DNA of 64,000 nucleotides, from assembly GCA_050251015.1 (NCBI GenBank), contig JBFWNO010000003.1, positions 1,411 to 65,410 of the forward strand, written 5' to 3'. Within the stretch, counting starts at the first letter, position 1, and each line of letters starts with the position of its first letter. This DNA is from Planctomycetota bacterium. Lineage in GTDB: Bacteria > Planctomycetota > JBFWNO01. The notes beneath the pieces are model-generated. The model had not been told where the DNA came from and ran no database searches. It saw nothing but the letters and a program-made list of their open reading frames with translations. Positions 10,064 to 27,053 of the stretch are shown piece by piece. The position numbers and the translations under genes were made by a program.

Positions 10064-10075
10064 TATGCCTATGGG

Positions 10076-10627
10076 CTACTTCCCATTGAGCTTCTGAATC
10101 GGCCCCCAATTATTCAGAAATGTGGAGAAGTCCCGCTTGCGGTCTGAGTTGTCCCCGAGGGCCAGGGCCAATTGGTCCTTGCGCTTGAGCCCACGGGACT
10201 CCCAGCACTGCCCATTCGCTGTCACATTGAGATAGCACTGTATAGTGCGGCCATTCCCGTGAATTGCCTTAATGCGCTTCAATAAATCTTTGGGTTTGAT
10301 GACGATGAATTCAGTGATTCGGCGCTCAAACCCCACGACAACGAAAACCCAATAATCCGCTTTGGACTTTGCGAGCTTGTCCTGGTTGATAGACCACCAA
10401 CCGCAGGCCCGCAAAGACTTCTGGAACAAAGATGAGAAATGGGTGGTCAGGAAGTCCCTTGAGAACTTCACCTGGAGGGAGATGGCCTTGTTGTTTTTGG
10501 AGTTTGTAACGAGCAGATCAATCCCAGTGTCTCTGGATGGGACCCATAGGTTGCAGCGTTTGAATGTCTTCTCGATGTAGTCCGCGACTACAAATTCCCC
10601 GGCATGCACTGTGAAGATGGGTTTCAT
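10076..10627 (-). CDS. small PD-(D/E)xK-type (DUF4365/Hjc-like layout) putative nuclease
   Basis: 183 aa, AT-richer than the flanks. Motif layout is GEFVVADYIEK ... SRDTGIDLLV ... ISLQVKFS, i.e. E ... D ... (Q)xK as in restriction-endonuclease-fold proteins. Confidence 0.5.
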   Translation of the reverse strand: MKPIFTVHAGEFVVADYIEKTFKRCNLWVPSRDTGIDLLVTNSKNNKAISLQVKFSRDFLTTHFSSLFQKSLRACGWWSINQDKLAKSKADYWVFVVVGFERRITEFIVIKPKDLLKRIKAIHGNGRTIQCYLNVTANGQCWESRGLKRKDQLALALGDNSDRKRDFSTFLNNWGPIQKLNGK

Positions 10628-10717
10628 TGATTGGAATCATAGCGCATCAATCATGATTCCTTGGCTGGCTAAAAGGTCTCATGACAGCGATCCTGCAGCC
10701 ACTTCTATAATGCACCC

Positions 10718-11353
10718 ATGTGCGGCCGTTTCTCCTTCAATACTGAAGAAGCCAAGATCCGCATCCGCTTTGGGATCGACCTTGCGGGCATACCCCTACC
10801 CCACAATACCGACGTCCGCCCCACCCAACGCATCCTCGCCGTGGTCCATGGACCCAAGGGCCGCGCTCCCGCCTTCTTCCAATGGGGATTGATCCCGCAC
10901 TGGGCCAAAGACAAGGACATCGGCGTCAAGATGATCAACGCCCGCGCTGAAACCGTTGCCGAAAGGCCCAGCTTTAGAGGTCCGTTTTCGAAGCAGCGCT
11001 GCCTGATCGTGGCCGACAGCTTCTATGAATGGAAAAAGAATGGTGCGAAAAAGATCCCCTATCGCATTCGCCTCAAGAGCCATGAGCCCTTTGCGTTCGC
11101 CGGACTCTGGGATTCCTGGACGGGACCGGATGGCAAGGTGATCAAATCCTGCACGATCATCACGACGGAGCCCAATGCTCTGCTCGCGCCCATTCATGCT
11201 CGGATGCCGGTGATCTCCACAGCGGAATGGGAAAACGCGTGGCTGGACCCCGCAGAACGGGACATGAAGAAGTTACAGGGTTATCTGCGGCCCCTGGACG
11301 CGGCGCTGATGGAGGCCGAGGCATTGGAGGAGTTCCCGCCGGTTCTGCAATGA
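10718..11353 (+). CDS. SOS-response-associated peptidase (SRAP / YedK-HMCES family, abasic-site DNA-protein crosslink enzyme)
   Basis: Starts MCGRF (catalytic Cys2). Family motifs: RPTQRILAV, WGLIPHWAKD, INARAETV, RCLIVADSFYEW, PFAFAGLW, SCTIITTEPN, IHARMPV. Confidence 0.9.
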   Translation: MCGRFSFNTEEAKIRIRFGIDLAGIPLPHNTDVRPTQRILAVVHGPKGRAPAFFQWGLIPHWAKDKDIGVKMINARAETVAERPSFRGPFSKQRCLIVADSFYEWKKNGAKKIPYRIRLKSHEPFAFAGLWDSWTGPDGKVIKSCTIITTEPNALLAPIHARMPVISTAEWENAWLDPAERDMKKLQGYLRPLDAALMEAEALEEFPPVLQ

Positions 11354-11393
11354 GAGCGGAGCGGTAGAAGTCGCCAATCTACCGAACTATATT

Positions 11394-14300
11394 TCAATAC
11401 TGCATCTTGTGAAGGTGATTAACGCGCCCCTTGAAGTATTTAAGATTAAGAGCTTTGGTCACGTGTATCACAGCGACAGTGTGAGTGTATTTTCCCCTGT
11501 TGGGGTAAATGTCCCTTTCATAACGCTGGAGGTTGATTAGAACGAGTAGATCCTTATTACATTTCACGAGGATACTCTTCAAGACAGAAGGGGTACATAA
11601 GAGACGCATCCCGAAATCGTCTTCATCTTCCCTATCCTGGCCTTCCCTGCCCCATGCCTGCGCGGACAAAACTGGACGACCACGGGCATCCTTCCAGATA
11701 CGGCCAAATGAGTCACCTTTTGATAGAGAGCAGAATTCAACAAAGTCATGTGCCAAATACGATCTGGAATTGGCCGTTGACACACTATATGGATCGTGCT
11801 TATCGAGACGAGCATCATCGGACGGACAAACAATCCAAGGCGTGTATTCACTCATATTGCCTCTAAAATATTCTCTATTTTCTTCGTCCACTTGTAAGCA
11901 TGGAACACAAACTACCATCGGCTCTTCGCAAACCAACTTGCGCGCGAGAACGGCTGCTCTTTGCGGAGAAACCAAGGCAGATGAAATACGAACTTTGACG
12001 TTGTCTGCGGATGTCCATTGGCCATCGACAATAAGACCTTTGCTCATTCGCGGTCCACTGTTGATTAGCGTCAGAATTTTCTCGCGATCGCCAATAATCG
12101 ACAGCTCATTTTTCTTTCTTTCAAGGAGAATTTTCGCTGTATCGAGTGGCGTTCTGTCAGTCCCATCCGACAACCAGAGTCCATCATTGCTCGTGAGGGT
12201 ATATCGACCAAACCACTCCCTCCAAGGATCGCCATCATGCCAGCTATCATCTGTAACTGGATAATCCTTAAGCAACCTGCCTGCAACAATGAAGAGAGCA
12301 TGCCAGCCTAGTTGCTGTCCATACGTTTGATATCGGGTAGTCATCTCGTAGGAAGCATGCCTGTATCGAGACTCTCGCCCAGGTGAGTCATGCATAGCTT
12401 CGACCTTCGGATCGATTGCATGGACAATTTCCGCCATCTGATCGACGACTTTCCAGCACTGTTGGCCGAAGACACGTGCAAGATTGTCTACGTCATACTT
12501 GTGAAAGTCGTAGTCGAGATGGAACTGGAAGGCCGGTTCCGGCTGAGATTTTGGGCGGCCTGAGTAGGCGTCTTCGTTTTTCCGAAGCCTCTTCTTGAGA
12601 CGCCCGTGCGGAGAGCGGTCAGTATCGCGTACACATGTCGCTTGCTTGGCAGGAAGATTCAAATGCCCAGCACTCATACATATATGTAACGCCTGGCCGG
12701 CAAAGTGCCGCATTAGGACATGCGGATCAATATCATTAACTACAATTTGCAGTAGCTGATCCCTATAGCGCGCAATCTGAGCTGGAAAGTCCGTCGCTAT
12801 CCTAGCCAACGCAATGAGCAGCCATAGACGAGCATGCATGTAGAAGAACGGAAGCTCTTTCGCTTGAAAGGGCCCCGCACCTACCTCACTGAACTTTTCA
12901 ACAACTTTATCAATAACATCCCAGCGTCCGAATTTTGCAAATGTTCGGAGACTGTGGGCTGCGCGCCACCGATCAACGGCGTATGGAGAACCGAAGACGC
13001 GCCAAATTAGGCCTGCACTGATTTTCTGAATATCACCCGGCGGATAATGCCCCTCTGTCCAAGGACCATCGACGACACTATCCACCAGTCTCGCAGCCTC
13101 ACTAGAAAGGAGTCGTCTTAATGCGAGCTGTCCCTGTCCTGCATCAGACTCAGGACAGATAAGCGTTGCAAAGGCGAGCCAGACTGAGCCTGGAACCATA
13201 TTGTCCAAACGGGCACAGTTTTTGATGAGTTTAATAATTAGATCTGGAATCGGAACACCTGTAAGATCAGATATCTCCTTGATGTTGGAGCCGGACAAAC
13301 GGCCATCCACAACAAGATCATGGGAATGCGCATTGATGAGAATGTCGGCCAGATCCGCATAAATATCTGTAAGCGCAACTGATGATCTATTCCATGCTTT
13401 TTTAGCATCCTTTAACTCGACCAACTTCCAGTAGAAAAAGAGGTTATCAAGCGTTGCAATATTATGAATATATTTCGAGCGGAAACGATATGGAACCTTC
13501 CCTCTTAGATTTACAAAGAAGTCGCCTTTCAAATCGCACATGTTTCCAAGCGCATTAAACTCATCGATTGCTTTGATTAAAGATGATTCATCTATAGGAT
13601 CTGTCTTCACCACAATATGTTTGAGATCCTTCCGATTTTTTTTTCCACGCTCGTCCATTACTTTACGATTTTTGAGATTAGGAAAACTTGCATGGTTATT
13701 TCGATCATTACGCATATCCCTCACCTTGGCGTAGCAAGCGCGCGCTGCTACAAGATGTCTTGCAACTTCTGAAGACGGTCCAAGGGCTTCGTGCGCAAGG
13801 TTACCGAGCGTTTCGAATGTATCATCCATCGCAACATCGGGGTTATTGTCCTGGAACTGGTCAATCAATTCCTCGATAACCACTGGGTCAGGACCCGCCT
13901 GCTGACGCAACGCTTGCGCGAACTCCTTCGAGCTAGAAAAATAATGCTCAACCGGATTGGCAAGGCGGTTTAGAGCAAGCGCGACTTTCGCATCAATTTT
14001 ATTATCTCTAAGCAAGCCAATTAGATATGGAAGCAAGGTAACATTCAGGGCAATCTTTGACCTATCGTCCCAACGACTCAGCTTTGCTAACCCCCTCGGG
14101 CCGGCAACCCTAGATAAACCATGTCCATACGCGCCCCAGAAGAATTTCTCAGGCTCTTCCCCAATATTAAGTTCACAGATATTTGACAACGTGTGGAAAT
14201 CATGCTCGTCAAGCTCACTACCCTTCATTTGGGAGGCGAATAGCAAAAGTTCATTAGTAAACTGGTAGTCTCCCGAACCTATCGCGTCCATCTGCTCGAG

Positions 14301-17300
14301 CCCATAACGAAAGTACTTCGATGCTTCGCATATGCTTGCTGGCAACATGGCACGACCCAACGCTCCGAATAAAGATGCTCTATAGCCGACTTCGTCTTCC
14401 CTTTCGATCAAGGCGCGAACCTTTATCGCTTGTTCACCAGCCAGCGTTTGCAGCATCCTTTTTTGCGCAAGGATCGCAACGATATGTATGCGGCTATGCG
14501 CTCCAATTTTCTGGTTATCGATGCTGGACAATAGACGTTTTACAGTAGCCAGCTTAAGCTCAGGACGGAACCAGAAGGCAAAGAGCATAATATCGAAGCC
14601 CAACAAACGAAAGAAATGTTCAATCTCGTCAGGACGGTACGAATCGACGCTTCTGGAAGATTTCTCCCATGCTTTGATCAGCTCGTCAAATGTCTTGTCT
14701 ATTAAACTTGGACGCGATCCGAGAACCGCCGAAAACGCCCTCGTTAGTGCAAGTAACGGCTCAAGCCGCTGGCTTAAAAACCGCCCTGCACTATGATGAG
14801 ACTCATTGCTAAGGGAGTTGGATTTGGCGCCCTGTCCTTCGTCTTTCGTTTTGTTATTTAAGCATTTATCTATTCTTTCTTTTGCCTTGTCACGGAACTC
14901 CTTCCCTGCAACATCTTTTCCAATGCGAGAACAAATATGCACAAGCTCTTGTGGCAGTAAATCCCTGTCATGCACGGGTTGATTCTTAATAGCAGCGTGT
15001 AGCGCGATTCGAAACAAGAAGGGGAAAACATCGCGGTTATAGGAAACATCACGGAAAGCCCAAAGGTTAGGGCGCTTATGTGGAACACGCATGGATATTG
15101 CCATCGCCTCCGACTTCATGCCCAACGACAACGCGATCGCTGCAGACTTGCGCAACCCATCCTGTAGCTCATTTGAACGACTTCGATGAATGGCATCGCG
15201 AAGGTCGAGATTTGCTGCACCCTTGCAACGATTTGCAAGCTTGGCTACCAAGTCTTTGCATTTCGCCTTCGAAAGTTCGTTGAATGATAGGGCGGCGGCC
15301 AGAACACCAATGCTTGAGAGCACACTAACGAATTTGTTATGCCGCAATGATTGTTTAGAACGAAGTGACTGCGAGAGCCTCAAATAACCAAATATGTGTT
15401 CGCAGATCTCATATGCATACCAGTCTTTCCACCGATTTAGATATTGCATGGCATCCACGCAACGACCCTGCGAGATCATAAAGAAGGGTATCGCAGCGAT
15501 GTCTGTGGGCTCGGGGATATGATCGCGAGGCTCGTGATCACGGCTTTCGCGTCTGTAATGTTCGATCCATTCATAGCCCAAGTGAAAATGACGGGATGCT
15601 TCATCAGAGTCGCCAGAAAGCGTGTTGACTATGGCAAGACGCGTATGACGGGCTCCCCGCCAACCAGTTTTTGTCTCAAAAAGACGCCTCATCGCATCCA
15701 TGTCCTGGGCAGCCACAATGAGATCTGGATGATCGCGAATATAATCCCTGCCGCGCTCATCAACTGCCGCGATAGTTGAAAGTTCGAGCAACAATCGGAC
15801 AAGACTGTTGTAATCTTTTTTTTGGGCGGCGTGAAGTGTTGCCGATTTAAGTCTGGAATATCGCACATTCCTCTTGCCGATAGCACTCGTGATGGTCGAT
15901 GGTATACGATCATCAAAGGCAAGTTTGATAAGTTGTTCTCCATCGTTAAGTTGAAGTAAGAGTCCGGGTAACGCACGTGCTGCGTAGACAGAAACATCCT
16001 GTCGTTCAAATAGTTTAGTGGCCACATGGAGAATTGCCTCGCGTGATGACACATACCGTTTATTGACAAATGTCTCAGTCGGTTCATCACGAAACATTAG
16101 CCCCTGGTTTGTGCGCTCCAGAAACGGCGACAAATCCGAAGAAAAGCTTTTGATCGCGTCGAGTGCCATGGTATGCGCACCGGCATATTCTTCAAGGGGC
16201 ACTGGCGGCGGAAGTACGGCAAGACCGGCAAGGAACGCATTTATATCTTTCTCCTGGCATCCTCGCAGATTTGCGGCGGAAAGCGCGTCAGTAATTCTTT
16301 TCTGAATAAGATCTTCTAGTTCAATTTTTTTATCGATCTCGGACTGATCCAGCACCCCGCCGCCTTCTTTGAGGAGATATTCAAGCACGCGTGGATTCCC
16401 ACCTGAGCGAGCATGCGCAACATTGATTTTTATCTCTGAGGGATTTTTTAGCCTTGTGCGCATAAATGATGCTGTTTCACTCTTGCTAAAAGGTCGCAGC
16501 TCATACTCATCGTATTTGGCATGGGTTACCGGCTTGCGTTCAGGACGACAGGAAATTATGAGTTTGACTCCAGGTATTGGCTCGGCGTCCAAGCATTCAA
16601 GGAATTTAATTGGGAAACAGTCTTCACTACGCCGACGCGCAATAATATCTGCATTATCTATCGCATCGATTAGCAGAGCTAGCTTCTTCCCTGGTGTATA
16701 TCTTCTTATCGTTTCAAGAGACTGAATAAGACGCCTTCTGAAGGTTTTTAGCAAGCCTTGTACATCTGGATTGTCAGGCAAAATAGGATCACAAAAGCCA
16801 CGAAAGGCTAGAGTATTCGCTATATGGATTACCCCTTTCTTTGGCAGGTGACGGGAATCCTCGGGAGACCGGTAAGCACCTCCACCAAAGCAATCGAAAA
16901 AAACAACCTCATAATTGTTAGCCAACACTGTTTCGAGCGTACTCATAAAAACGGTCTTGCCGACTCCACCAGTTGCATGAATAAGTAGTGGCATGGCCGT
17001 ATTCGAAACACGAGCAATGACTTCAGCAAGCTGTTCACGCTCAAGAATATTGCCGACTTTAGGGAGCGTGGATTCACACGGCAATAAATCCTTCGGATCG
17101 CCGATTTGTAATGCACCCAGTATGTCAGTGCGCGTTATCAAGTTTCTGCCTGTGCCCGCACAACCAGCCTTTTCACGTACGAGCTCCCTCAGTTTTCCAA
17201 GTCTTGCTGAAGCATTGGCGTCATATGTAGCAGACCAGTCAATGAGCATACGCGTCAGTTCATTCTTTGTTTCACGAAGGTTGCCAGATCGGCCAAAAAG

Positions 17301-17843
17301 TTTGAACTTCCGTACGAATGACGCCAGAGGCTTGCCACTTAAACCAGAATATTTCTCAAGCTGCTTTGCCTGTCGCTCAGCATCACCCTTGCATGACGAA
17401 CAAGAAGCCAAGCCATCCATTGCCTCTATGAGTGACTTACTGATCGGCTGGTTTGTAACGAGCTGAAAATCGAGCTTTGCTTCAACGGCTTTAACACCGT
17501 ATTTCCTCATGTAATCTACATATGTCTTGCCGAACTTCACCACAGTATTCTTCGCATCAGCCGCCCGAAATTCCTTGTCTTCGCTAGCAATCGAGTACTT
17601 GAACTGGACAATGGTCGTCTTATTAGCCTGTTTAAATTCAGGGTTGCCTCCGAAATACTTTGTTAGGTCAGCGATATCGATAGTTTGTGTGGATGCATGG
17701 ATCTGGTCAGCTGTTGACAATCCCTCCACGGCAATGGCTGTCAGATCGCTTTCTGGCAAAAGGAGTTGCATGGCCATTCGTGCCGTCCACGCTTCATGAA
17801 ATTCGTGACCGTCACGAGATGCTCTGACTTTTTCTACTCTCAT
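11394..17843 (-). CDS. giant Cap4/DUF4297-like nuclease - STAND NTPase - long C-terminal sensor protein (Avs/NLR-like defence candidate)
   Basis: Uninterrupted 2,149-aa ORF, visibly AT-rich. N-terminus GHEFHEAWTARMAMQLL...IAVEGL...IDIADL...IVQFKYS (PD-(D/E)xK of Cap4 type). Walker A LLIHATGGVGKT, Walker B LALLIDAIDNAD, ISCRPE, LRPFSKSE, GGNPRVL (GxP-like). About 1,650 further aa carry no nameable motif. Confidence 0.85.
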   Translation of the reverse strand: MRVEKVRASRDGHEFHEAWTARMAMQLLLPESDLTAIAVEGLSTADQIHASTQTIDIADLTKYFGGNPEFKQANKTTIVQFKYSIASEDKEFRAADAKNTVVKFGKTYVDYMRKYGVKAVEAKLDFQLVTNQPISKSLIEAMDGLASCSSCKGDAERQAKQLEKYSGLSGKPLASFVRKFKLFGRSGNLRETKNELTRMLIDWSATYDANASARLGKLRELVREKAGCAGTGRNLITRTDILGALQIGDPKDLLPCESTLPKVGNILEREQLAEVIARVSNTAMPLLIHATGGVGKTVFMSTLETVLANNYEVVFFDCFGGGAYRSPEDSRHLPKKGVIHIANTLAFRGFCDPILPDNPDVQGLLKTFRRRLIQSLETIRRYTPGKKLALLIDAIDNADIIARRRSEDCFPIKFLECLDAEPIPGVKLIISCRPERKPVTHAKYDEYELRPFSKSETASFMRTRLKNPSEIKINVAHARSGGNPRVLEYLLKEGGGVLDQSEIDKKIELEDLIQKRITDALSAANLRGCQEKDINAFLAGLAVLPPPVPLEEYAGAHTMALDAIKSFSSDLSPFLERTNQGLMFRDEPTETFVNKRYVSSREAILHVATKLFERQDVSVYAARALPGLLLQLNDGEQLIKLAFDDRIPSTITSAIGKRNVRYSRLKSATLHAAQKKDYNSLVRLLLELSTIAAVDERGRDYIRDHPDLIVAAQDMDAMRRLFETKTGWRGARHTRLAIVNTLSGDSDEASRHFHLGYEWIEHYRRESRDHEPRDHIPEPTDIAAIPFFMISQGRCVDAMQYLNRWKDWYAYEICEHIFGYLRLSQSLRSKQSLRHNKFVSVLSSIGVLAAALSFNELSKAKCKDLVAKLANRCKGAANLDLRDAIHRSRSNELQDGLRKSAAIALSLGMKSEAMAISMRVPHKRPNLWAFRDVSYNRDVFPFLFRIALHAAIKNQPVHDRDLLPQELVHICSRIGKDVAGKEFRDKAKERIDKCLNNKTKDEGQGAKSNSLSNESHHSAGRFLSQRLEPLLALTRAFSAVLGSRPSLIDKTFDELIKAWEKSSRSVDSYRPDEIEHFFRLLGFDIMLFAFWFRPELKLATVKRLLSSIDNQKIGAHSRIHIVAILAQKRMLQTLAGEQAIKVRALIEREDEVGYRASLFGALGRAMLPASICEASKYFRYGLEQMDAIGSGDYQFTNELLLFASQMKGSELDEHDFHTLSNICELNIGEEPEKFFWGAYGHGLSRVAGPRGLAKLSRWDDRSKIALNVTLLPYLIGLLRDNKIDAKVALALNRLANPVEHYFSSSKEFAQALRQQAGPDPVVIEELIDQFQDNNPDVAMDDTFETLGNLAHEALGPSSEVARHLVAARACYAKVRDMRNDRNNHASFPNLKNRKVMDERGKKNRKDLKHIVVKTDPIDESSLIKAIDEFNALGNMCDLKGDFFVNLRGKVPYRFRSKYIHNIATLDNLFFYWKLVELKDAKKAWNRSSVALTDIYADLADILINAHSHDLVVDGRLSGSNIKEISDLTGVPIPDLIIKLIKNCARLDNMVPGSVWLAFATLICPESDAGQGQLALRRLLSSEAARLVDSVVDGPWTEGHYPPGDIQKISAGLIWRVFGSPYAVDRWRAAHSLRTFAKFGRWDVIDKVVEKFSEVGAGPFQAKELPFFYMHARLWLLIALARIATDFPAQIARYRDQLLQIVVNDIDPHVLMRHFAGQALHICMSAGHLNLPAKQATCVRDTDRSPHGRLKKRLRKNEDAYSGRPKSQPEPAFQFHLDYDFHKYDVDNLARVFGQQCWKVVDQMAEIVHAIDPKVEAMHDSPGRESRYRHASYEMTTRYQTYGQQLGWHALFIVAGRLLKDYPVTDDSWHDGDPWREWFGRYTLTSNDGLWLSDGTDRTPLDTAKILLERKKNELSIIGDREKILTLINSGPRMSKGLIVDGQWTSADNVKVRISSALVSPQRAAVLARKLVCEEPMVVCVPCLQVDEENREYFRGNMSEYTPWIVCPSDDARLDKHDPYSVSTANSRSYLAHDFVEFCSLSKGDSFGRIWKDARGRPVLSAQAWGREGQDREDEDDFGMRLLCTPSVLKSILVKCNKDLLVLINLQRYERDIYPNRGKYTHTVAVIHVTKALNLKYFKGRVNHLHKMQY

Positions 17844-18015
17844 TTGAATTCGTGAATCAGTCTCGAATTCCGCCCAATGTACGGTTCACAAATATATTTC
17901 CAGAAATCACAAGGCATAGTAGGCACCTCCTCGGATCGTGATTGCCAACTTATTGAGTCATACATCGCAACCCGCCGCAACCGGTTATCAACCTGTATCT
18001 TCGCATGGCTACATT

Positions 18016-20562
18016 TCATTCCTTCGCCACCACCGTGTCATACAGCCCATAAGTCCTGAGTCCCTCATGGCTCTCGATGCCAGTGTAGCGCAGTGACGCG
18101 TCTTCGTACCGTCGGAACGCGAATACTGCCTGGTTCATCTGCTCGGTGTTGAAGACCTTGAGTCGCACGAGCAGGTGGAAGTCCTTAACCGCCAGCCCAG
18201 TGACGGCCAGAAACAGATCTGGTTCCAGCTTGGTGATCACGTCTTGGAGTGTGTTCTCGCGGAAATCTGTCAGGTACATGAACGCGGGGATCCGCGTTGC
18301 GAACTTGATCAGCTTCTCCTGCACAAGCTTGCGCTTGGACTTATACTCCTTTTCCTCCTCGGTGAGCTGCTTCTTCTGCTTGTCGGTCAACTCCTTGTCT
18401 CTGCCCTTGTTCTTGAGCTCCTTGACCTTGTCGCTCTTGTTGATGATGGTCTCGATGATGTTGTCGCCAAGCGCCCGCCATCCCTCAATGCGCTCAACGG
18501 CGGCCATCGCCTCAGGGTTGTCCAAGATGCGGCGTAGGGTTTCGTTATCCACATTTACGAGCAGTGCACTCTCCCATTTGCGGGCCAGCAGCGTGGCCGA
18601 GGTGCCAGCCATCGCGATATCGAGGATGCCACCCGCATCGATCTGCGTCATGTTTGCGCCGTCGTAGGCCAGCACCGGCAGGAATGACACGAGATCCTTG
18701 ACGGCATTCTCGGGGTTGGGCTCGGTGGGCGACAGGCCGATCCCGTACTCAGAGATCTGCCGTAGCGCACGCGTGGGCGCGAAGTCAAAAACGAAGCAGA
18801 CAGGCTTGAGCACCTCCTCCTCGTTCGGATTGTCGCCATGAGGGTTCTTAATGGCCCATGGCGACTGAACGCGGAATGCGGCCTGAAAGTAGGTTTCCGG
18901 TGACTTGAGGTTGCGTAGCATCAGGATTGATGACCACTGCGGCACCGTCACTCCGGTGGCGAGCTTTCCGCACGAGAGCGTGATGGTCTTGGTCTCGAAT
19001 CCGCTACCGAGGGCTTTGCGCACGGGCGGCAACGCCTCCAATCCAATGCCAGCCGAGGCGCCAGCGGCGATGATCACCTGATAGTCGCGCCAGAAGGTGT
19101 TGTGCCTCTCTGCCAGCAGGTTTGCCATCGCGTGGCAAGCCGCGACATTAGGGAGGAACCAAAAGGAGTGCTGAAGGTAGGGTAACAGGCGCGCGTCCGA
19201 ATATGGAAATGGCGGCCGAGTGCCCGTCTTCAGATGTTCGGCTGACTTAGGAGCATATCCTCCCCGAATGATCTCCAGCCACTTCTGCACATCGCTTGCG
19301 TGTTTGAACCGCGCCTTAGTCCCTGTGCCCGATGCCTCGAAGAAGGCGTTGAGATCGAACTCGTCGAACTCCCCAGCGCTTGCAATTGCCAGAAGTTCAT
19401 CCGGCATCTGGTAGGTGAGCAGGCGCATCTGTGGCAGTGCACCATAGGGGTTCCGGTTGCCGGGATTCCTGGCGGCGAATTCCTCCTTGGCACGCTGCTC
19501 ATCGGTGTAGGTCCAGTTGTAAATCTGTTCTTCGATAAATTCGCCGGTGGCCAACGCTTTGAACGGTGTTCCAGATAGGTAGAGACATGCCTTGGTCGTG
19601 ATGGGCAGGAACTCGGTTTCCCTTTCCAATGGTTCCTGCAAATCGGCGATTTTCTCTTTCTGGCCCTTGGCATCTTCCAACCGGGCCTCCACCCTGGAGA
19701 TCGCCTCTTCTTCGTCCTCGAATAGTTCCTTCGCACTATCCCGCCATGCCCCGAAGTGGTACTCATCGAAAACCACAAGGTCCCAATTCACCTCATGGAG
19801 CCATTCATTCTTGGCCTTGATGTTCCCGGCCTTGTCACGGCCGAGCAGGTCCTGGAAAGAGCCGAAATAGACGAGCGGGTTTTTCGAGGAGGCCTTTGTT
19901 GGGTCGCCACCTGAAGCTTTCGACAGGTATTGCCAGCCATCAAAATCCACATGGGATTTGAGGTCAATCTCCCACGCATCCTCAACGGCGGGTTTGAAAG
20001 TAACCACAAGCACTCGCTTGGCGCCGAGCTTTTTCGCGAGTTGGTAGGTGGTGAAGGTCTTGCCGAAGCGCATCTTCGCGTTCCAGAGGAACCGAGGGAC
20101 CGCATGCCTGTCCTCCTTCCAGATGGAATGGAAGTAAGCGTGCGTCTTGTTCACAGCCTCGATTTGCTCGCGGCGCATCGGGAAGGTCTCGTGATGCGTG
20201 CCGGTGAACATCTTGCCACAGCGCAGTTCGGCGAGCACGGTCTTCACGTCATTGACCGAGCAACGCATCCATTCCAGCTCGGCATTTTCAAATTTCTTCT
20301 TAGCGAGTATGGCGCGCACCTGGTGATCTGTGATGATCGTGCCATCGTCGCGCTCGGCTGGCTCGTCAAGCTCGATCTTGTAGTTCTTGATCGCGGCAGT
20401 CTTGAGCTGCTCGGCAACACGCTGCTTCACGCTCCGCGTGGTTTGACCAACTTTGAGTAGCCCCGCATGCGCCCTGTCGTCAATCGAATATGCGTAGATG
20501 CGTGGACGGGCTTCCGGTTTGGGCGCAAGGATTTCTTCTATGCGCTTACTCATCACCCTCAC
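18016..20562 (-). CDS. T5orf172/GIY-YIG-like domain fused to SF2 (DEAH, type III Res-like) helicase
   Basis: 848 aa. N-terminus RIYAYSIDDRAHAGLLKVGQTTRSVKQRVAEQL...ELEWMRCS matches the T5orf172/MUG113 pattern. Helicase motifs: MRFGKTFT (I), LVVFDEYHFGAW (II), LYLSGTPF (III), QAAFRVQSP (VI). K/E-rich coiled C-terminal region. 17-nt overlap with the upstream MTase gene. Confidence 0.85.
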   Translation of the reverse strand: MRVMSKRIEEILAPKPEARPRIYAYSIDDRAHAGLLKVGQTTRSVKQRVAEQLKTAAIKNYKIELDEPAERDDGTIITDHQVRAILAKKKFENAELEWMRCSVNDVKTVLAELRCGKMFTGTHHETFPMRREQIEAVNKTHAYFHSIWKEDRHAVPRFLWNAKMRFGKTFTTYQLAKKLGAKRVLVVTFKPAVEDAWEIDLKSHVDFDGWQYLSKASGGDPTKASSKNPLVYFGSFQDLLGRDKAGNIKAKNEWLHEVNWDLVVFDEYHFGAWRDSAKELFEDEEEAISRVEARLEDAKGQKEKIADLQEPLERETEFLPITTKACLYLSGTPFKALATGEFIEEQIYNWTYTDEQRAKEEFAARNPGNRNPYGALPQMRLLTYQMPDELLAIASAGEFDEFDLNAFFEASGTGTKARFKHASDVQKWLEIIRGGYAPKSAEHLKTGTRPPFPYSDARLLPYLQHSFWFLPNVAACHAMANLLAERHNTFWRDYQVIIAAGASAGIGLEALPPVRKALGSGFETKTITLSCGKLATGVTVPQWSSILMLRNLKSPETYFQAAFRVQSPWAIKNPHGDNPNEEEVLKPVCFVFDFAPTRALRQISEYGIGLSPTEPNPENAVKDLVSFLPVLAYDGANMTQIDAGGILDIAMAGTSATLLARKWESALLVNVDNETLRRILDNPEAMAAVERIEGWRALGDNIIETIINKSDKVKELKNKGRDKELTDKQKKQLTEEEKEYKSKRKLVQEKLIKFATRIPAFMYLTDFRENTLQDVITKLEPDLFLAVTGLAVKDFHLLVRLKVFNTEQMNQAVFAFRRYEDASLRYTGIESHEGLRTYGLYDTVVAKE

Positions 20563-22126
20563 CCATTGGTCGTATCATACTCTCAATGAATGCGACTTCG
20601 CTCTTCGTAATGCCATACTTCGAGTACAGTAGATCGTCAGTCCAAGTTCTGCTCCAGGACTGCTGTGGCACCCATGTGTAAGTCGATCGCAGGGCATGCT
20701 GGGTGATTTTTCTCAATGACACGAGAAAACGGAATAGGCGAGTCCGATAGTAGCTACTGAAACTCTGAGCTGACCTCTCGGATTTGAATGGAGCCACAAC
20801 AAGGTATGATTGAGTGCACGCTGATGGGGGCGCGGCTACAATCTCTTTGCCTAGGATTTGATGCGGGAAAGTCTCACCAGCCCCATAAGCTTCGGGCACT
20901 AGAACCTTCCATGTATCGATAGTGTTTGCATTCTTGCGAATGTCTCCACGCTTCATGAAACCGGTTGTTCGCTTGCCCTTACTGATCAGGTGGAGCTCAA
21001 TCTTGCCGCTCCCACCTTTCTCGGTCCAGCCCTCGAAGTTCGTCGCGATACCGAATGGCGTATCACCTGACACGAGCTCAAAGACCGAAGGCTCCTTCTT
21101 GGAGAGAACCTTCCTCAGGATTCCAAGTGCGCGTTCGTCACGAACGAAAACATCAAACTCGCCTAGCTGCCGATTGCGTTGAAAATGTCTTTCACCTCCG
21201 GCCATGCGTGTGACATTACAGGTCCCGTTGTATGCGCCATCCCAAAGGAAGTAGCACACGCCACCCTTGATTTGAACGCCGGGGAAGGCATCGCCAGAAT
21301 CGGGAAAGTCCGTGAGGCTACGGAGATGGCCTTCGCTGAGCATCTGCGCCCTGAACTCATCGAGCCCTCGCCCGCCCGCCATCCATCGCGAAGGCGTGAC
21401 AAAAGAGGCAAACCTCGGTTCAAGTTTGAGTGCCTGCTGGACAAAAAGATGGTAGATCGAGGAGTCGCTCGAACCCCCCGCGCCGCCAGTCATTTGGTAC
21501 GGTGGATTGCCGATGATCACATCGAATTGCATATTACCTCCAAACAACTCGGCTAGCCGAGCCTTTATATCGCTGGTGTGAATGAAAGCGTAGGCATGGG
21601 TTTCAAGTCCCTCCTCACGATCAAAAATCGACCGGGGCGCTCCGCAGTACCCACACTTCGCACCATCCCATGTGTGCTCCATGTGTTTGAACCAAATATT
21701 CCCATCATTGCTGGCAAACGACTTGGCAATGGAGTGCTTACCTTTGGCGTTCTTCGAACAATACACGCTCCGTCGCGCCAGCAGGCTCGTGAGGTGCGTG
21801 ATACCGATGCCGAACACCTGTTTTGTTAGAATGTGATTCACGCGTTCATCAAGGTTGGGTATTGCCTTGGCCAAGCCCTTGGTAAGGCGGCTGGTGATCT
21901 CGCGCAGGAACACGCCTGTCTTCGTACACGGATCAAGAAACTTCACCGTCTTGTCCGCCCATATGTTCGCGCCGCCTTTGTCTGCCGCCCATGCCTCGGC
22001 CAGCGTGTCCAGCATCTGGTTTGCAAATTCCGGTGGCGTGAAAACCTCGTCGTTGGAGAGGTTCGCAATACACGTCAGCACATCCGGGTTGCGGCCACGG
22101 AGCGCAAAGCCAACCTTGGCGTTCAT
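20546..22126 (-). CDS. Eco57I-like N6-adenine DNA methyltransferase with C-terminal target-recognition-like region
   Basis: 526 aa. Motif X EVFTPPEFANQML, degenerate motif I FLDPCTKTGVFL, catalytic motif IV FDVIIGNPPYQM. C-terminal TPSRWMAGGRGLDEFR...GVCYFLWD resembles RM-type methylases. Confidence 0.9.
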   Translation of the reverse strand: MNAKVGFALRGRNPDVLTCIANLSNDEVFTPPEFANQMLDTLAEAWAADKGGANIWADKTVKFLDPCTKTGVFLREITSRLTKGLAKAIPNLDERVNHILTKQVFGIGITHLTSLLARRSVYCSKNAKGKHSIAKSFASNDGNIWFKHMEHTWDGAKCGYCGAPRSIFDREEGLETHAYAFIHTSDIKARLAELFGGNMQFDVIIGNPPYQMTGGAGGSSDSSIYHLFVQQALKLEPRFASFVTPSRWMAGGRGLDEFRAQMLSEGHLRSLTDFPDSGDAFPGVQIKGGVCYFLWDGAYNGTCNVTRMAGGERHFQRNRQLGEFDVFVRDERALGILRKVLSKKEPSVFELVSGDTPFGIATNFEGWTEKGGSGKIELHLISKGKRTTGFMKRGDIRKNANTIDTWKVLVPEAYGAGETFPHQILGKEIVAAPPSACTQSYLVVAPFKSERSAQSFSSYYRTRLFRFLVSLRKITQHALRSTYTWVPQQSWSRTWTDDLLYSKYGITKSEVAFIESMIRPMGEGDE

Positions 22127-22812
22127 TCGGCCACCTTTGTGGTGTCGCCGGACGCGGCGGCGGCCAGCTCACTCACCGACATGGGTGGATAGGTCCTCTC
22201 TGGCGTGAAGATCTTGTGCTTGCCAAGAGGTGCGAAAAGCGGGTGCTGTTCGTTGAAGGACGACATGTGGGTAAGGATATCCAAAAGGAAATCGCGGCGC
22301 TGGAACTTCCCCTTGCCCAGGTAGCCCCACTCGGCAAAAGTGATCGGGCGGTCGTCATGGGTGAGCATCTTTAGCGCGTCACCGTGAACGAGGTTCAGGG
22401 ACAGAACACAGAACGCGGCGCGATAGGTTTCGTCCGACTCATCAACATTCAGGTATTCGGCAAGAATCTTCAGCAGATTCGCACGGCACTCAGCGATGTT
22501 GTCGGTCAATAGCTCAATGCCATAGATGCACATCAGCGCGAGGAGCGCATAGTGCCGCCGCTCGAATTCGGACTTGCCGTACTTGATTTCCACAGCGGCG
22601 AGCTTCCGTTTCAAAATCTTCACAAGAAAGTTGCCACTGCCGCACGCTGGCTCCAGAAATCGGGAATCGATGCGCTCCGTCTCGCCCTTCACCAAGTCGA
22701 GCATCGCTTCGACCATCCACTCCGGGGTGAAGACCTCGCCATGGTCGGAAACGCGTTGCCTGGATTTGACATAATTTTCAGAATGGCGCATGCGGTGACA
22801 TACTTCCATCAT
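22123..22812 (-). CDS. methyltransferase N-terminal half-like protein (SAM-binding motifs X and I, no NPPY)
   Basis: 229 aa. EVFTPEWMVEAML (motif X), canonical FLEPACGSGNFL (motif I), YGIELLTDNIAECRANL. No (N/D)PPY motif anywhere. ATGA overlap (22123-22126) with the downstream full-length MTase. Confidence 0.7.
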   Translation of the reverse strand: MMEVCHRMRHSENYVKSRQRVSDHGEVFTPEWMVEAMLDLVKGETERIDSRFLEPACGSGNFLVKILKRKLAAVEIKYGKSEFERRHYALLALMCIYGIELLTDNIAECRANLLKILAEYLNVDESDETYRAAFCVLSLNLVHGDALKMLTHDDRPITFAEWGYLGKGKFQRRDFLLDILTHMSSFNEQHPLFAPLGKHKIFTPERTYPPMSVSELAAAASGDTTKVAE

Positions 22813-22870
22813 GCATTGCTGGGAAATGCCGGCATGGCGACATTCCTCGTGCTAATGTACCCATTAGACC

Positions 22871-23218
22871 TCAACCATCCTTCTTGAAGTAATACCCGAC
22901 AATAATTCCAGCGAGCACCCCGGTTGTTCCATCACTGATCAGATTCATATAGGCCAGCGTCCCAATACAGGCAAAAGACAAGATCAACATGATCCCATTG
23001 TGCCAGTACTTTGCCTTCCGGGCTTCTGGAGTATTGCCAAATAAATTGGCGGCGTGTTTTAAGAAGGACTCCATGAATGCCTTGACTTCAGCATTGCGCA
23101 TCAACTCCAGCCAAGCCGTGAGATTGTCCGCTGTGGTGGAATTGGTAGTCCGCTCATTTTTTTCGCTAATTGAACGCTGAGCGGATGTTTGATCAGTCTG
23201 CTCTTCTCTGCTCATCAA
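22871..23218 (-). CDS. small membrane protein (two C-terminal TM helices)
   Basis: 115 aa, AT-rich. C-terminus has WHNGIMLILSFACIGTLAYMNLI and GVLAGIIVGYYF. ATGA overlap with the upstream 101-aa gene. Confidence 0.5.
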   Translation of the reverse strand: MMSREEQTDQTSAQRSISEKNERTTNSTTADNLTAWLELMRNAEVKAFMESFLKHAANLFGNTPEARKAKYWHNGIMLILSFACIGTLAYMNLISDGTTGVLAGIIVGYYFKKDG

Positions 23219-23520
23219 ACGCCCCGGGATTTAAGGTCTAGCTCAGCTTCCGCAGGAACTAATATTTCCTCATCACCATCAATTGACCATTCTCTACTAT
23301 GAAGCACCTCACAGGTAACAAGGGACAGATCGTCCCAAGGGAAGTAGGGAACAGGCTTGCCAAATACCATTGGCGCTGCAATTCCAAATCCCATAGATGC
23401 GCGAGCTCTTGCCGACAATTCATCCTCCGCTCGGATAATCACCTCTCCGTAGTGGGTGCTGGCACGCCAGTTGTTATGGTTTTGATTCGATGGTGTAAGT
23501 TTCCAAATCTTCATGGCCAT
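23215..23520 (-). CDS. hypothetical small soluble protein
   Basis: 101-aa ORF translationally coupled (23215-23218) to the small membrane protein. No known motif. Confidence 0.45.
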   Translation of the reverse strand: MAMKIWKLTPSNQNHNNWRASTHYGEVIIRAEDELSARARASMGFGIAAPMVFGKPVPYFPWDDLSLVTCEVLHSREWSIDGDEEILVPAEAELDLKSRGV

Positions 23521-23567
23521 GCGTCTCTACTCCATGTCCCGCGAGCACAACAGTCGGCCCTCACATT

Positions 23568-23933
23568 TTACACCTCAAACTCCAAAAACACACTCACCCC
23601 ATCTAAATTCCCCAACGGCACCCAATTCCCACTCCCCGAGTACCCCGCCACCCCGACAATCCCCCCTGGATTCTTCGTCCCGCCATCCGTGACGAGCTGA
23701 TTGTTGAAGATGATCATGTGGGGCGCACCCCCATTCTGCATCCCCAGATTCACGGGATAGGGCTCAAAGGTTCCATCTGGTGTAGTAGGCGTGGTGTTGG
23801 CGGGGTTGAGGGCTCGCATGAAATTTGGAAAGGAGGAATGACAGACCACAAATTTCCCCTGGAAACTGATGGCAGGACTTAGTGTGTCGGTAATCCCGCT
23901 GGTCCGAAGAGCCACAAACGCCGAGCCAGCCAA
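23568..23933 (-). pseudogene. truncated paralogue (C-terminal about 120 aa) of the prophage tail-fibre-like gene 27054..28211
   Basis: LNPANTTPTTPDGTFEPYPV / GGTKNPGGIVGVAGYSGSGNWVPLG aligns with LNPSNTTPLTPDGTLEPYPV / SGTKKPGNVAGVATYSGSGNWVKLG of the 385-aa protein. The whole N-terminal beta-propeller-like part is missing. Confidence 0.6.
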
Positions 23934-24027
23934 GCCCTTTTTACATCGATGCGCAGCTTCCGGCGCTCACCGCCGAACCCACCGGCGCGCGCCTGATTGA
24001 CTGACACGCAGCAAGATTTATCAACTT

Positions 24028-25182
24028 CTACGTCAGTTCATCCGGATCATGAACGATTACGACTCCGTTGGGCAAGGCGTATCCTTTGCCTTCGAGCGAC
24101 GCTCTCTTGTCCCGAAAACCCCTGAGTGCTCTCAAAATTTCCGCCTTTAGAGAAGAACATGCATTTCCCAATAATGCCTTTCCTATCGGGCCATACAACC
24201 CAATCACGTCACCGAATGGTGTGATACCCAATGGCAATATCGACAACTGCCCCACTTGAGGCAACCGTGTGTTTTCGCCGAGTTCTGAAAATGGCGAGTG
24301 CATCTTTCGTCCAGCAACCAGTTGATCAGCAAGGATGTCATGCCCCATGAACTGAAGTGCTTTCGCGTAGGCGAGACGTATTACCATGTCCGATTCTGGA
24401 TTCTTCTCTTGCCCCCGTGATCCATCTGGGTCCTTGATTATCGTTGTGGTTTCGGATTTGGGATGAATTCCTTGGATACAGAAGTGTGTCCCTATGACAA
24501 CGCGACTACATGAGTTTCTGAGCAGCAGGTTTACTGGCTCGACATTCTGTACTTGCTTCCAACCTTCAGGATCAATTCTTTTCGTGATGCTTTTTTTGGT
24601 CCCGGTTGCGCCTTTGCTCTCAGCAAGTACGGCTTTCCCATCCGCACCTTCACAAAAATAGTCCGGCCTCGCCTCAGAAGTTGCATTGGCAACATATACC
24701 AACTCTCTGCGCTTGATACAGGCATAGGCGTCTGCGATGTGCTCTAGATCGAAGTGCTCGCGAAGGAGATAACATGAGATTCCTGCGGCTACTTCCTCCG
24801 ATGCGACAGCCATAAGCCGTGGATCTTTATCTTGGACACCTTCGTAAAATCGCAAGTCCGGATGTGATCCCGCAAAATCGCCACCATAACGAAACAGAGC
24901 AAACCACGATCTCGGATCCCAGGACGTGGTTGCGAGAGTCGTGGCTATGCCCGTTTCAATAAGCACGCGATGTAGGCTGACCTGGATTCTCCCGTTACTA
25001 GGTAGCGGTCGCTGCAACGCGAACGCTGGCGGCATGACCTCAACGATCCATTCACGCAAATCTGAGGGGCTTGGCGCGAACAGAATAGGGAACGGCGAGA
25101 GGCGGTGTCGTACCCGCCAGAATGGGCACCAGTGCTCAGCCAGTCGGGTATTGCGATTCAATATTGAAGGCGGAATCTTCAA
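24028..25182 (-). CDS. hypothetical protein with PD-(D/E)xK-like core (orphan defence-cassette candidate)
   Basis: 384-aa ORF (TTG start in the track, true start uncertain), AT-richer than the flanks. Candidate nuclease core EARPDYFCEGADGKAVLAESKGATG (PD...ExK). Flanked on both sides by tail-fibre 3' remnants. Confidence 0.55.
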   Translation of the reverse strand: MKIPPSILNRNTRLAEHWCPFWRVRHRLSPFPILFAPSPSDLREWIVEVMPPAFALQRPLPSNGRIQVSLHRVLIETGIATTLATTSWDPRSWFALFRYGGDFAGSHPDLRFYEGVQDKDPRLMAVASEEVAAGISCYLLREHFDLEHIADAYACIKRRELVYVANATSEARPDYFCEGADGKAVLAESKGATGTKKSITKRIDPEGWKQVQNVEPVNLLLRNSCSRVVIGTHFCIQGIHPKSETTTIIKDPDGSRGQEKNPESDMVIRLAYAKALQFMGHDILADQLVAGRKMHSPFSELGENTRLPQVGQLSILPLGITPFGDVIGLYGPIGKALLGNACSSLKAEILRALRGFRDKRASLEGKGYALPNGVVIVHDPDELT

Positions 25183-25259
25183 AATCTACTTGTTTCCTTT
25201 GCTAAAATCTTTCGTGACCATATTTCGACTTGCCCTCAATCGTAGTGATTTAGAGATCC

Positions 25260-25372
25260 TTACACTACAAACTTCACAAACGGTTCCGCCCCATCCAAAC
25301 TCATCAACGATACCCAATTTTCAGCTTCCAGAATAGGCCGCCCCCCCACCGGCGCATGGCCATACCAGATTG
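25260..25372 (-). pseudogene. decayed, frameshifted remnant of the tail-fibre gene 3' end (copy 2)
   Basis: Minus strand reads ...AGGGAAYSGS then, after a 1-nt frame break, NWVSLMSLDGAEPFVKFVV*. This matches VGVAGYSGSGNWVPLGNLDGVSVFLEFEV* of 23568..23933. It begins directly after the Mrr stop codon. Confidence 0.45.
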
Positions 25373-25374
25373 GT

Positions 25375-26418
25375 CTATATCTCCTTGACCTTCGTTGATG
25401 CCTGACCCTCCGGCTCCTCCAGTTCAATCAAGAAAAATGGCCGCTTGACGACCCCGATCTCATGCGCCACAAGGAGCCGCGCCAGTTGCTCCCCATTCAT
25501 CAGCCCCACAGGCACTGCATCAGACCGTTCGGCCTCCCGCTTCGCCCCGGGGCTGAAATCACTCGTCGTGATGATGAGCCCCTGCTCGTGCGTTCCAAGA
25601 CTACCACGCACCTGTTGCACCACTGGGGACTGGACATTGGCCTTCCACTTTTTTGCCTGTATGGCCATGCGGGTGCGGATCGTCCCGCCGACGACGAGAG
25701 TGGCCCGCACATCGATACCCCCATCGCCGCTCTTGCGGTACACCTCGATGTCATCGAAACCCATCTCGGCCAGAAGGCGCCCGATCAGCACTTCGAACTG
25801 GCCCCAGCTCAGCGCCAGCAGACGGGCCAACAGCGCCTTCCTGGCGCGCTGATTCTGCTGATCGATCTCTAAGACCAGACCCTGGCCCATCCATTTACTC
25901 AGCCCAAACATGCCGCGCGCATGTTGCACAAAGAGGGGTCCCTCCCCCTGGCGCTGGGCCCGCTTGCTTGCGGTATAAAGCTGTGCGGCCATGGTTGCAT
26001 CCGGAGTTTTCCCCTGCGTGTCGAGCCAACCCAGTTTGAGAGCCTTGGCAGTGATGTCGCGGAAATGCATTGGCTTTTTGTTGCCGAACTGTTCAAGCAC
26101 CTTTTCAGCCGCCTTGAGGAAGGAATATGTTGTTGCCGACACCTTGGTCTTTGGTTCCACCGGTCGCTTGGATGATGAGGACGGCTTTGCTCCATTTTCA
26201 TGCAGGCCAAAGGTCTGTGAGGCCACAAGCACAAACGGCGACTTGTCACCACTCTTCTTGATGTCTGAGTAAAGCCGGGCACCGACGGTCGCGGCGGGGG
26301 TCTTTCCTTCGCTACGCCAAAGTCCTCCGGCCGTCATACGCTTGGTGATCTCCCTGGCGTGAAGGGGCTCACCGGCTTCCCGGAGGATCTGTACAGCGGC
26401 GGCACGGACATTCATCAT
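25375..26418 (-). CDS. Mrr-family type IV restriction endonuclease with two N-terminal HARE-HTH domains
   Basis: 347 aa. Two HARE-HTH units (GLWRSEGKTPAATVGARLYSDIKK...FVLVASQTFGL; GWLDTQGKTPDATMAAQLYTASKR...FVQHARGMFGL). C-terminal Mrr_cat core: FEVLIGRLLAEMGF...SGDGGIDVRA...MAIQAKKW...GLIITTSDFSPGA. Confidence 0.85.
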   Translation of the reverse strand: MMNVRAAAVQILREAGEPLHAREITKRMTAGGLWRSEGKTPAATVGARLYSDIKKSGDKSPFVLVASQTFGLHENGAKPSSSSKRPVEPKTKVSATTYSFLKAAEKVLEQFGNKKPMHFRDITAKALKLGWLDTQGKTPDATMAAQLYTASKRAQRQGEGPLFVQHARGMFGLSKWMGQGLVLEIDQQNQRARKALLARLLALSWGQFEVLIGRLLAEMGFDDIEVYRKSGDGGIDVRATLVVGGTIRTRMAIQAKKWKANVQSPVVQQVRGSLGTHEQGLIITTSDFSPGAKREAERSDAVPVGLMNGEQLARLLVAHEIGVVKRPFFLIELEEPEGQASTKVKEI

Positions 26419-26528
26419 TTTCCTGCTCCGATTTGCAAAAACACCCGGCAGATCCCTCTGAAAACAACAAGTGATGCCTCAAAGTTTATTACATGTGATC
26501 TGGAGCCACAAGCACCGCCTGCTTGGCA

Positions 26529-26858
26529 TCATGTGGGTGTAAGCTTGGTTAGGAGGCGGCGCAAGGCCAAGGCCGTGGCTTCATGCCTATCCGCCAGGAT
26601 AAGGATGCTGATGGGGGTTGCGGCTTCAATGGAAGGCAGGCCAAAGGGCCTGGTATGCCACTTGCCAGTGCGAGGATGCTTGTAGCGCACATCTACCAGA
26701 TCGCTACCTGCGAAACCTTCTCCAGGGCGACAGCACACCACACTCCCCACAATGTCTTTCGCGCCAAGGTGATAAGGGTTCAAACGGATCAACACCTTGT
26801 CACCCGGGGCGAAGAGGGGTTGGTGTTTTGCGATCCTTTTCTTCTTTTTCCGTGACAT
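26529..26858 (-). CDS. hypothetical small protein upstream of the Mrr gene
   Basis: Start chosen at MSRKKKKR (26858), preceded by AGGAGG. The longer ORF form (to 27023) would read through the fibre-remnant sequence. 109 aa, beta-rich, no known motif. Confidence 0.45.
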   Translation of the reverse strand: MSRKKKKRIAKHQPLFAPGDKVLIRLNPYHLGAKDIVGSVVCCRPGEGFAGSDLVDVRYKHPRTGKWHTRPFGLPSIEAATPISILILADRHEATALALRRLLTKLTPT

Positions 26859-26965
26859 GTCGACCTCCTGTATCGCGCAAGCCTGCGCCCTCACACTAGG
26901 GAGAAAGTTCTGCTCAAAAGCAAGGGAATTCACAGCACGATGGCGCCGCATTTCAGGTCGCACAT

Positions 26966-27053
26966 TCATATTGAAAACTCCACAAACGGCCCCGCCGCAT
27001 CCAGAATCTCCAATGTCGGCCAAACACGATCATCCCGATTGAAACACCCATCT
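26966..27053 (-). pseudogene. short remnant of the tail-fibre gene 3' end (copy 3), immediately downstream of the intact gene
   Basis: Minus strand 27022..26966 reads WPTLEILDAAGPFVEFSI*, alignable with W(V)PLGNLDGVSVFLEFEV* (23568 copy) and WVSLMSLDGAEPFVKFVV* (25260 copy). DNA repeat core: aaact(y)cacaaacgg..ccgcc.catcca. Confidence 0.45.

Follow-up and report, generated by a model that had tools for sequence, protein, structure and literature searches.

A multi-system defence gene cluster as probable cargo of a tRNA-Asp-anchored prophage in a Planctomycetota genome

A 64,000-nt stretch of contig C3 from a metagenome-assembled genome (MAG) of the Planctomycetota, referred to below as the window, carries between about 10.07 and 27.05 kb a run of nuclease, NTPase, methylase and helicase genes that lies beside a prophage integrated at a tRNA-Asp gene. 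The question raised by this locus is whether these genes form a defence island of their own or belong to the mobile element next to them. The window covers positions 1411–65410 of C3, and the assembly (2.88 Mb in 190 contigs) is 88.9% complete with 1.3% contamination. The defence cluster is genuine and compositionally foreign, and although it is ordinary in concept it offers some useful details. The explanation preferred here, with a confidence slightly better than even, is that the span, a cluster of several anti-phage defence systems, was gained through horizontal transfer and is most likely carried as cargo at the prophage end, within a 63-kb block anchored at tRNA-Asp.

An earlier, sequence-only reading of the window had described a patchy, AT-richer composition from about 10.07 kb onwards, and windowed G+C values bear this out. 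The span 10064–27053 has a G+C of 0.519 compared with 0.591 for the genome (1-kb windows: standard deviation 0.041, 1st percentile 0.462), and the windows overlapping it are the lowest in G+C among the 902 17-kb windows of the assembly. All four of the AT-richer stretches named in that reading, 10076–10627 (G+C 0.509), 11394–17843 (0.475), 22871–23520 (0.480) and 24028–25182 (0.513), fall at or below about the 2nd percentile of the distribution for long open reading frames (ORFs). The second stretch, which is the gene of an Avs3 homologue, has a third-codon-position G+C (GC3) of 0.46 (z = −3.2 relative to 1055 long ORFs), and this value together with the record low of the 17-kb windows supports a foreign composition. 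Patchy is an accurate word for the region because patches of host-like G+C, represented by the SRAP (0.59), helicase (0.57) and Mrr (0.59) genes, separate the low-G+C stretches.

The gene content reported in that reading was also recovered, since family matches identify genes for nucleases, NTPases (a STAND NTPase among them), methylases and helicases. At least three recognisable modules, an Avs3 homologue, a three-gene methylase-helicase cassette and a HARE-HTH-Mrr nuclease, support the claim of a defence cluster, and at least two of the uncharacterised genes, which had been proposed as defence candidates by association, do associate with defence genes elsewhere. Almost all genes had been placed on the minus strand, and this holds for 12 of the 13 ORFs in 10064–27053, the only plus-strand ORF being that of the SRAP protein (10718–11353). 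The tRNA-Asp at 54041–54117 is confirmed (minus strand), and the neighbouring prophage (27054–54040) is real. Unlike the prophage and the RHS operon to the left of the cluster, which do have paralogues in the genome, the island genes have none elsewhere in it, except for a 121-aa ORF that matches a resident tail protein.

The limits of the mobile DNA were drawn from repeats of the attachment site (att). The tRNA-proximal copy (54024–54061) comprises 17 nt downstream of the tRNA and its 3'-terminal 21 nt, ending in the T-loop. A second copy, identical at 37 of 38 nt (E 6e-14) and in direct orientation, lies on a different contig at C19:28676–28713, and is the only significant copy of the tRNA-Asp 3' end in the assembly. 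No other tRNA-derived att copy was found in the window, either by allowing up to 3 mismatches or by short-word BLAST. Beyond the C19 copy there are genes for an ECF sigma factor, a P-type ATPase and a DinB-family protein. The right end of C19 and the left end of C3 share 8 nt, and joining them produces an in-frame secreted protein of 947 aa that is 86% identical to a paralogue on C37 over 926 aa, in a gapless alignment that crosses the junction. On this evidence the right end of C19 adjoins the left end of C3, and the distance between the two att copies is then 63.3 kb.

Because the only second att copy is on C19, and C19 joins C3, the block is about 63.3 kb in length and not 44 kb. Between its att copies it holds the RHS/FG-GAP operon, the defence cluster and the prophage. 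The composite region at tRNA-Asp that had been proposed for the window thus stands in so far as island and prophage occupy one tRNA-Asp-anchored block, while its size of roughly 44 kb and its start near 10 kb do not, and the genes to the left of the island that had been taken for host genes are those of the RHS operon, inside the att-bounded block. The limits of the block are corrected accordingly. Since the cluster lies between tRNA-Asp and the sole copy of the tRNA 3' end, it lies within inserted DNA.

Other short motifs occur around the C19 repeat. The motif GGGGAYAMAGCTYGAAC is present at C19:28584, 28865 and 28941, and at C9:40556 and 43831. It resembles a tRNA T-arm with a 5-nt insertion, its copies adjoin short copies of the acceptor ends of tRNA-Asp or tRNA-Pro, and it was not found in 80 related prophage loci; these copies may be relics of older integrations. 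A second motif, GGGGAYAMAGCTCGAAC, found near the C19 and C9 repeats, was considered as a family-wide arm of attP, and this was rejected as it is absent from the same 80 loci.

The prophage core (27054–54023, minus strand) is siphovirus-like, and encodes tail proteins, a tape measure, a protease-capsid fusion, a portal, a large terminase, a primase and an exonuclease. At its tRNA end is the gene for a large serine recombinase (52449–54098, plus strand) with Resolvase, Recombinase and Zn_ribbon_recom domains, the last 19 codons of which are read from the antisense of the integration target, tRNA-Asp(GTC) (54041–54117, minus strand). The tyrosine integrase that anchoring at a tRNA usually implies does not apply to this locus: none was found on C3 or C19, and the serine integrase is the only recombinase in the block. 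An Rfam search over the window and C19 found only the tRNA. Large serine integrases are well known from temperate phages, for example those of phiC31, Bxb1 and A118, and SprA of SPbeta. The window enzyme has the same three domains and is likewise the only recombinase, placed at one prophage end, but it differs from them in targeting a tRNA gene and in having an attP that overlaps the 3' end of its own gene. Since the tRNA 3' end and trailer are copied in attP over 38 nt, the tRNA would be rebuilt, and the last 11–15 or so residues of the integrase would change, upon integration.

Comparable arrangements are found at tRNA-Pro genes. A sister prophage on C2 (about 1380–35149, ~34 kb; L019 and L020) is colinear with the window prophage from 28208 to the integrase, and this colinearity, counted from the integrase, stops at the 297-aa tail gene. 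Its serine integrase gene (C2:33594–35129) runs into tRNA-Pro(TGG). Integrase paralogues overlap the 3' ends of tRNA-Pro(CGG) (C15:36657–38277) and tRNA-Pro(GGG) (C60:2260–3859), and in another Phycisphaeraceae MAG a 44% identical integrase (L112:3330–4890) overlaps the 3' end of tRNA-Pro(CGG). Judged by these positions, the enzymes look like a tRNA-targeting clade of large serine integrases. Relatives of the phage genes come almost entirely from Planctomycetota MAGs; an IMG/VR search for relatives of the integrase and of the tail protein returned none or only two distant ones, and among metagenome contigs no relatives of the 385-aa tail protein were found.

Two features inside the prophage can be mentioned here. 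Two intergenic sites, 39708–39742 and 51541–51575, carry a 35-nt direct repeat with 89% identity, which may represent a shared promoter or operator. A patch of low G+C (0.45) at 39720–41500, between the portal and terminase genes, carries plus-strand ORFs, one of which ends in a SEC-C motif.

The defence cluster is positioned at the tail-distal end of the prophage, and related prophages were compared at this point. The structural module is common to 80 related prophage loci, and in one of these, L110, the tail genes are directly followed by a gene 50% identical to the HARE-HTH-Mrr gene of the window, with Type I restriction-modification (R-M) genes after it. A PADLOC survey, made without a background control and with matches not assignable to individual loci, covered 96 ORFs that lie 2–9 kb past the tail module, on its downstream side, in 28 of the related loci; the models matched among them are those for DrmA, DrmD, HmaA, methylases of Types I and III, BrxH and MADS (DISARM and Hma being among the systems represented). 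Because related prophages carry other defence systems, and once the same Mrr gene, just past the tail genes, prophage-end cargo is the best reading of the cluster, and a more likely one than the separate island wedged beside the prophage that was described in the sequence-only reading.

A trace of the phage is also found within the cluster itself. The 121-aa ORF (23568–23933, minus strand), which lies 3 kb inside the cluster, matches the C-terminal ~90 residues of the 385-aa tail protein of the prophage with 51% identity, and going by this match it is either a relic of a tail-fibre 3' end or a spare copy of one. As they are bracketed by two fibre ends, the genes for the predicted orphan nuclease, the Mrr protein and a 164-aa protein look like a cassette that was inserted at the end of the fibre gene.

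A temperate siphovirus-like phage thus inserted into the T-loop region of tRNA-Asp by means of its large serine integrase. According to the preferred explanation, the phage family, which belongs to the Planctomycetota, would keep a region of variable cargo between the tail genes and the distal attachment site, and successive insertions would have filled this region. Defence hotspots of the P2/P4 elements of E. coli have reportedly been described by Rousset et al. in 2022, and prophage-encoded defence in mycobacteriophages is said to have been described by Dedrick et al. in 2017. The likeness to both lies in a variable set of defence genes at a fixed site of a colinear prophage family, next to the attachment site, with systems that differ between relatives. 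The present case differs from them in its Planctomycetota host, in the use of a serine integrase at a tRNA and in its much larger load (17 kb of defence genes plus a 19-kb RHS operon); it differs from them also in being a case known from sequence, with a distal att that is a candidate. For a phylum that has received little study, it would illustrate how defence systems travel as replaceable cargo of a tRNA-targeting serine-integrase phage. Current concepts are left unchanged by it, as the systems and their arrangement are of known kinds.

Several points weigh against reading the cluster as prophage cargo. The assembly and the C19–C3 join depend on sequence logic; a search for public contigs spanning the gap turned up only a 2.2-kb Logan contig, no metagenome contig with rejoined flanks (an empty site) was found, and a look-up of the flank protein gave no record elsewhere. 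The flanks of the related prophages that hold defence genes also hold ordinary host genes, and the lack of a background control and of assignment to single loci in the PADLOC survey counts on the same side. The C2 prophage ends no more than about 6.7 kb past its tail genes, where it borders on TetR/efflux genes and where a tRNA-Pro repeat could not be recognised, so that a clean distal att is not always shown by this phage family and the cargo can be short. A size of 63 kb is large for a phage of such gene content. Finally, the RHS operon, with its host-like composition and two paralogous loci elsewhere, may owe its place in the block to something other than the phage.

A wider claim can be built upon the cargo explanation, namely that the whole 63.3-kb block is one unit still excisable by the serine integrase, either a temperate phage or an element derived from one, carrying both a defence arsenal (17 kb) and a toxin-like RHS/FG-GAP operon (19 kb), and that this phage family, with serine integrases aimed at tRNA T-loops, is a major defence vehicle and a fixed hotspot in the phylum, in a role like that of P2/P4 in enterobacteria. 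In this extended form we regard it as rather unlikely.

The main rival to the cargo explanation is a tandem history, which is possible though on balance doubtful. One or more older elements at tRNA-Asp would have left the C19 att copy as a relic, and the RHS operon and the larger part of the defence genes would stem from them too; the present prophage would then have entered the rebuilt tRNA, and a later deletion would have removed the junction att along with most of the older prophage, leaving only 27–54 kb (perhaps 24–54 kb) still mobile. The diverged tail-fibre end at 23568–23933 resembles the remains of a second, related phage, and three more degenerate motifs resembling the tRNA-Asp 3' end, all within 400 bp of the C19 repeat, fit with the site having been used more than once. 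The block is also mosaic in G+C, and its 63 kb is large for a phage when the C2 sister has only ~34 kb. Against such a history, the interval between 9 and 27 kb holds, apart from the fibre end, neither a relic of an att site nor a fragment of an integrase or of another phage gene. In addition, the Mrr gene is found in the same place in a related prophage (L110), and for this reason at least the part from 24 to 27 kb is argued to be cargo of the present phage.

It is less probable again, and we consider it improbable, that the cluster is a chromosomal defence island independent of any phage, the genes of which were gathered beside the tRNA by recombination, with the prophage as a coincidental neighbour. 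Defence islands often adjoin tRNAs and mobile elements, the R-M-like trio is inserted in many unrelated chromosomal contexts, and no mobility gene belongs to the island itself. However, the tRNA and the sole copy of its 3' end enclose the cluster, defence genes with a homologous Mrr among them are found at this position in related prophages, and a fibre relic lies inside the cluster. That the low-G+C segment came from another organism and was mis-joined into the contig, as the 190-contig MAG and the abrupt fall in G+C at the Avs3 gene might suggest, is very improbable, since genes are unbroken across every G+C transition, the SRAP, helicase and Mrr genes of host-like G+C are interleaved with low-G+C genes, both contig ends carry host or paralogue-validated sequence, and single low-G+C defence genes are common within genomes of higher G+C.

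As to the modules themselves, we infer the functions of the cluster genes from their sequences. The largest is the Avs3 homologue of 2149 aa (11394–17843, minus strand), with an N-terminal Cap4/LmuA-like nuclease, a STAND NTPase and a large C-terminal sensor. It is full-length, being colinear with SeAvs3 from end to end, and it matches the PADLOC model Avs3a (E 2.5e-218) and SeAvs3 of Salmonella enterica (AVAST type 3; PDB 8DGC; E 1.3e-145), the latter in the colinear blocks 6–806, 1154–1294 and 1586–2116. The nuclease part aligns from SeAvs3 residue 7 on, with a PADLOC LmuA/Cap4-like match at residues 75–245. In the ATPase, Walker A (GVGKT) aligns with GVGKS of SeAvs3 and Walker B (LLIDAIDNAD) with IIIDAADNAQ, and there is also a weak AAA_16 match. 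The C-terminal sensor block (residues 1586–2116) aligns with SeAvs3 1530–2054 at 152.7 bits. As the score falls far below the cut-off of the NCBIfam Avs3a equivalog (791 bits against 2800), the protein is a distant homologue and not an equivalog.

The two proteins are thus of the same length class (2149 and 2092 aa), with colinear nuclease, STAND ATPase and sensor and with both Walker motifs kept, but the middle of the sensor (~810–1580) of the window protein barely aligns. By analogy with SeAvs3, the protein would bind the large terminase of a foreign phage, oligomerise and release its N-terminal nuclease, resulting in abortive infection. A further difference from SeAvs3 is that the window gene lies in cis with a prophage encoding its own large terminase at 41538–43994, and an Avs3 sensor beside such a prophage offers a natural test case for Avs self-tolerance.

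The second module consists of three genes on the minus strand. A protein of 848 aa (18016–20562) fuses a T5orf172 (GIY-YIG-like) nuclease domain (residues 23–112) to an SF2 helicase (ResIII, residues 127–282), and is the predicted motor-nuclease of an R-M-like cassette. It has 8000 scored relatives, of which the best 120 are 85–88% identical and come from several phyla. Its gene is overlapped by 17 nt by that of an Eco57I-family N6-adenine methyltransferase of 526 aa (20546–22126; Eco57I domain, E 1.5e-33), which includes a target-recognition part and in which NPPY is present, GNPPYQ being visible in the alignment. The third gene (22123–22812) encodes a "half-methylase" of 229 aa that is limited to the part with SAM-binding motif I (EPACGSGNFL). 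Desulfuromonas carbonis has the same three genes, with identities of 76% (half-methylase, 210 aa), 58% (methylase, lower in the C-terminal half) and 87% (helicase). The 229-aa ORF had been considered a pseudogene fragment of a methylase, and this was rejected because it is kept in Desulfuromonas as the conserved third gene of the cassette.

From its family memberships, the cassette is likely an ATP-dependent R-M-like system, in which the Eco57I-type methylase would mark self DNA and the T5orf172-helicase would translocate on and cut unmarked DNA. The closest described system is DnmA (YeeA)-YeeB-YeeC, a cluster known from Bacillus subtilis and Vibrio crassostreae, and DnmA-YeeBC of B. subtilis gave no protection against phages (PMC9973331). 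In both, an SF2 helicase and a T5orf172/GIY-YIG nuclease work with an N6-adenine methylase like MmeI or Eco57I, and they share the logic of an ATP-dependent R-M-like system. The window cassette differs in that T5orf172 and helicase form one polypeptide, that the methylase is a shorter, Eco57I-type enzyme, and that an extra, conserved half-methylase is present. Type ISP enzymes (LlaGI/LlaBIII) are single polypeptides with an Mrr-type nuclease, whereas the window system has three separate, overlapping genes; as its activities are not in one polypeptide, it is not a Type ISP enzyme. In a Gemmataceae MAG contig (L023), a T5orf172-helicase gene without both methylase partners adjoins PIN and AIPR genes, an arrangement that may be a decayed copy of the cassette.

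The third module is a single gene (25375–26418, minus strand) encoding two HARE-HTH domains and an Mrr_cat nuclease (E 9e-28), which matches the PADLOC candidate PDC-S02 (E 5e-35). It is Type IV-like and, by its family, probably restricts modified DNA. Its N-terminal HARE-HTH part has 37% identity to the product of a small prophage gene (44690–45001, plus strand) that the C2 prophage carries as well.

At least two further genes of the cluster would be defence-associated, one of them a predicted nuclease, and likely functions can thereby be given to two "hypothetical" genes. The orphan protein of 384 aa (24028–25182, minus strand) has no family match, PADLOC models included. Its 59 relatives, mostly from Phycisphaerae, have in common a P-D...E-x-K signature (D174, E188, K190), invariant in 34 relatives, and the protein is a predicted PD-(D/E)xK nuclease. 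The AlphaFold model is confident (pLDDT 89.8); a fold search with it gave no significant PDB match (best E 0.36), the weak top matches being PD-(D/E)xK nucleases. In several contigs, relatives are encoded between HmaB (DUF1156) and HmaC (DUF499) with a spacing of 2–12 nt, and so sit inside Hma (helicase-methylase-ATPase) systems of PADLOC, whereas the window gene stands alone, without HmaA, HmaB or HmaC. The other is a protein of 183 aa (10076–10627, minus strand; G+C 0.509) of no assigned function, with a weak match to Mrr_cat_2 (E 0.005). Its family is widespread (at least 943 relatives), and neighbours of its relatives include TIR-domain genes, an Mrr-helicase gene and transposases.

The remaining ORFs of the cluster can be dealt with briefly. 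The SRAP protein (YedK/HMCES-type; PF02586, E 2e-65) is encoded at 10718–11353 on the plus strand by a gene of host-like G+C. Two small, overlapping ORFs of 115 and 101 aa (22871–23520, minus strand; G+C 0.47–0.49) have no family match, nor does the 164-aa ORF next to the prophage (26529–27023, minus strand), which may be only ~110 aa long if translated from an internal ATG.

To the left of the cluster, the eight-gene operon for secreted RHS/FG-GAP proteins extends over 19 kb on the minus strand (window 1–8994, C3:1–1410 and C19:29046–36591). Its products are a 394-aa protein, TPR and HEAT-like proteins, an RHS protein of 2163 aa, the secreted 947-aa protein that spans the contig junction, an FG-GAP protein of 1754 aa with a thioesterase-like end, and a 141-aa protein. 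Its composition is host-like, with a distal end that is low in G+C. Paralogous RHS loci on C37 and C29 show 64–86% protein identity, and the contig break within the operon is attributed to them.

At the other end of the contig, the last 184 nt of C3 (window 63862–64000 and the C3 right end) match C17:1–184 at 99.5%, so that C17 probably follows C3. Among the 67 tRNA genes of the assembly, at least 11 are on contig C185, including a second, dissimilar tRNA-Asp(GTC), and this contig may represent a tRNA array of phage or foreign origin.

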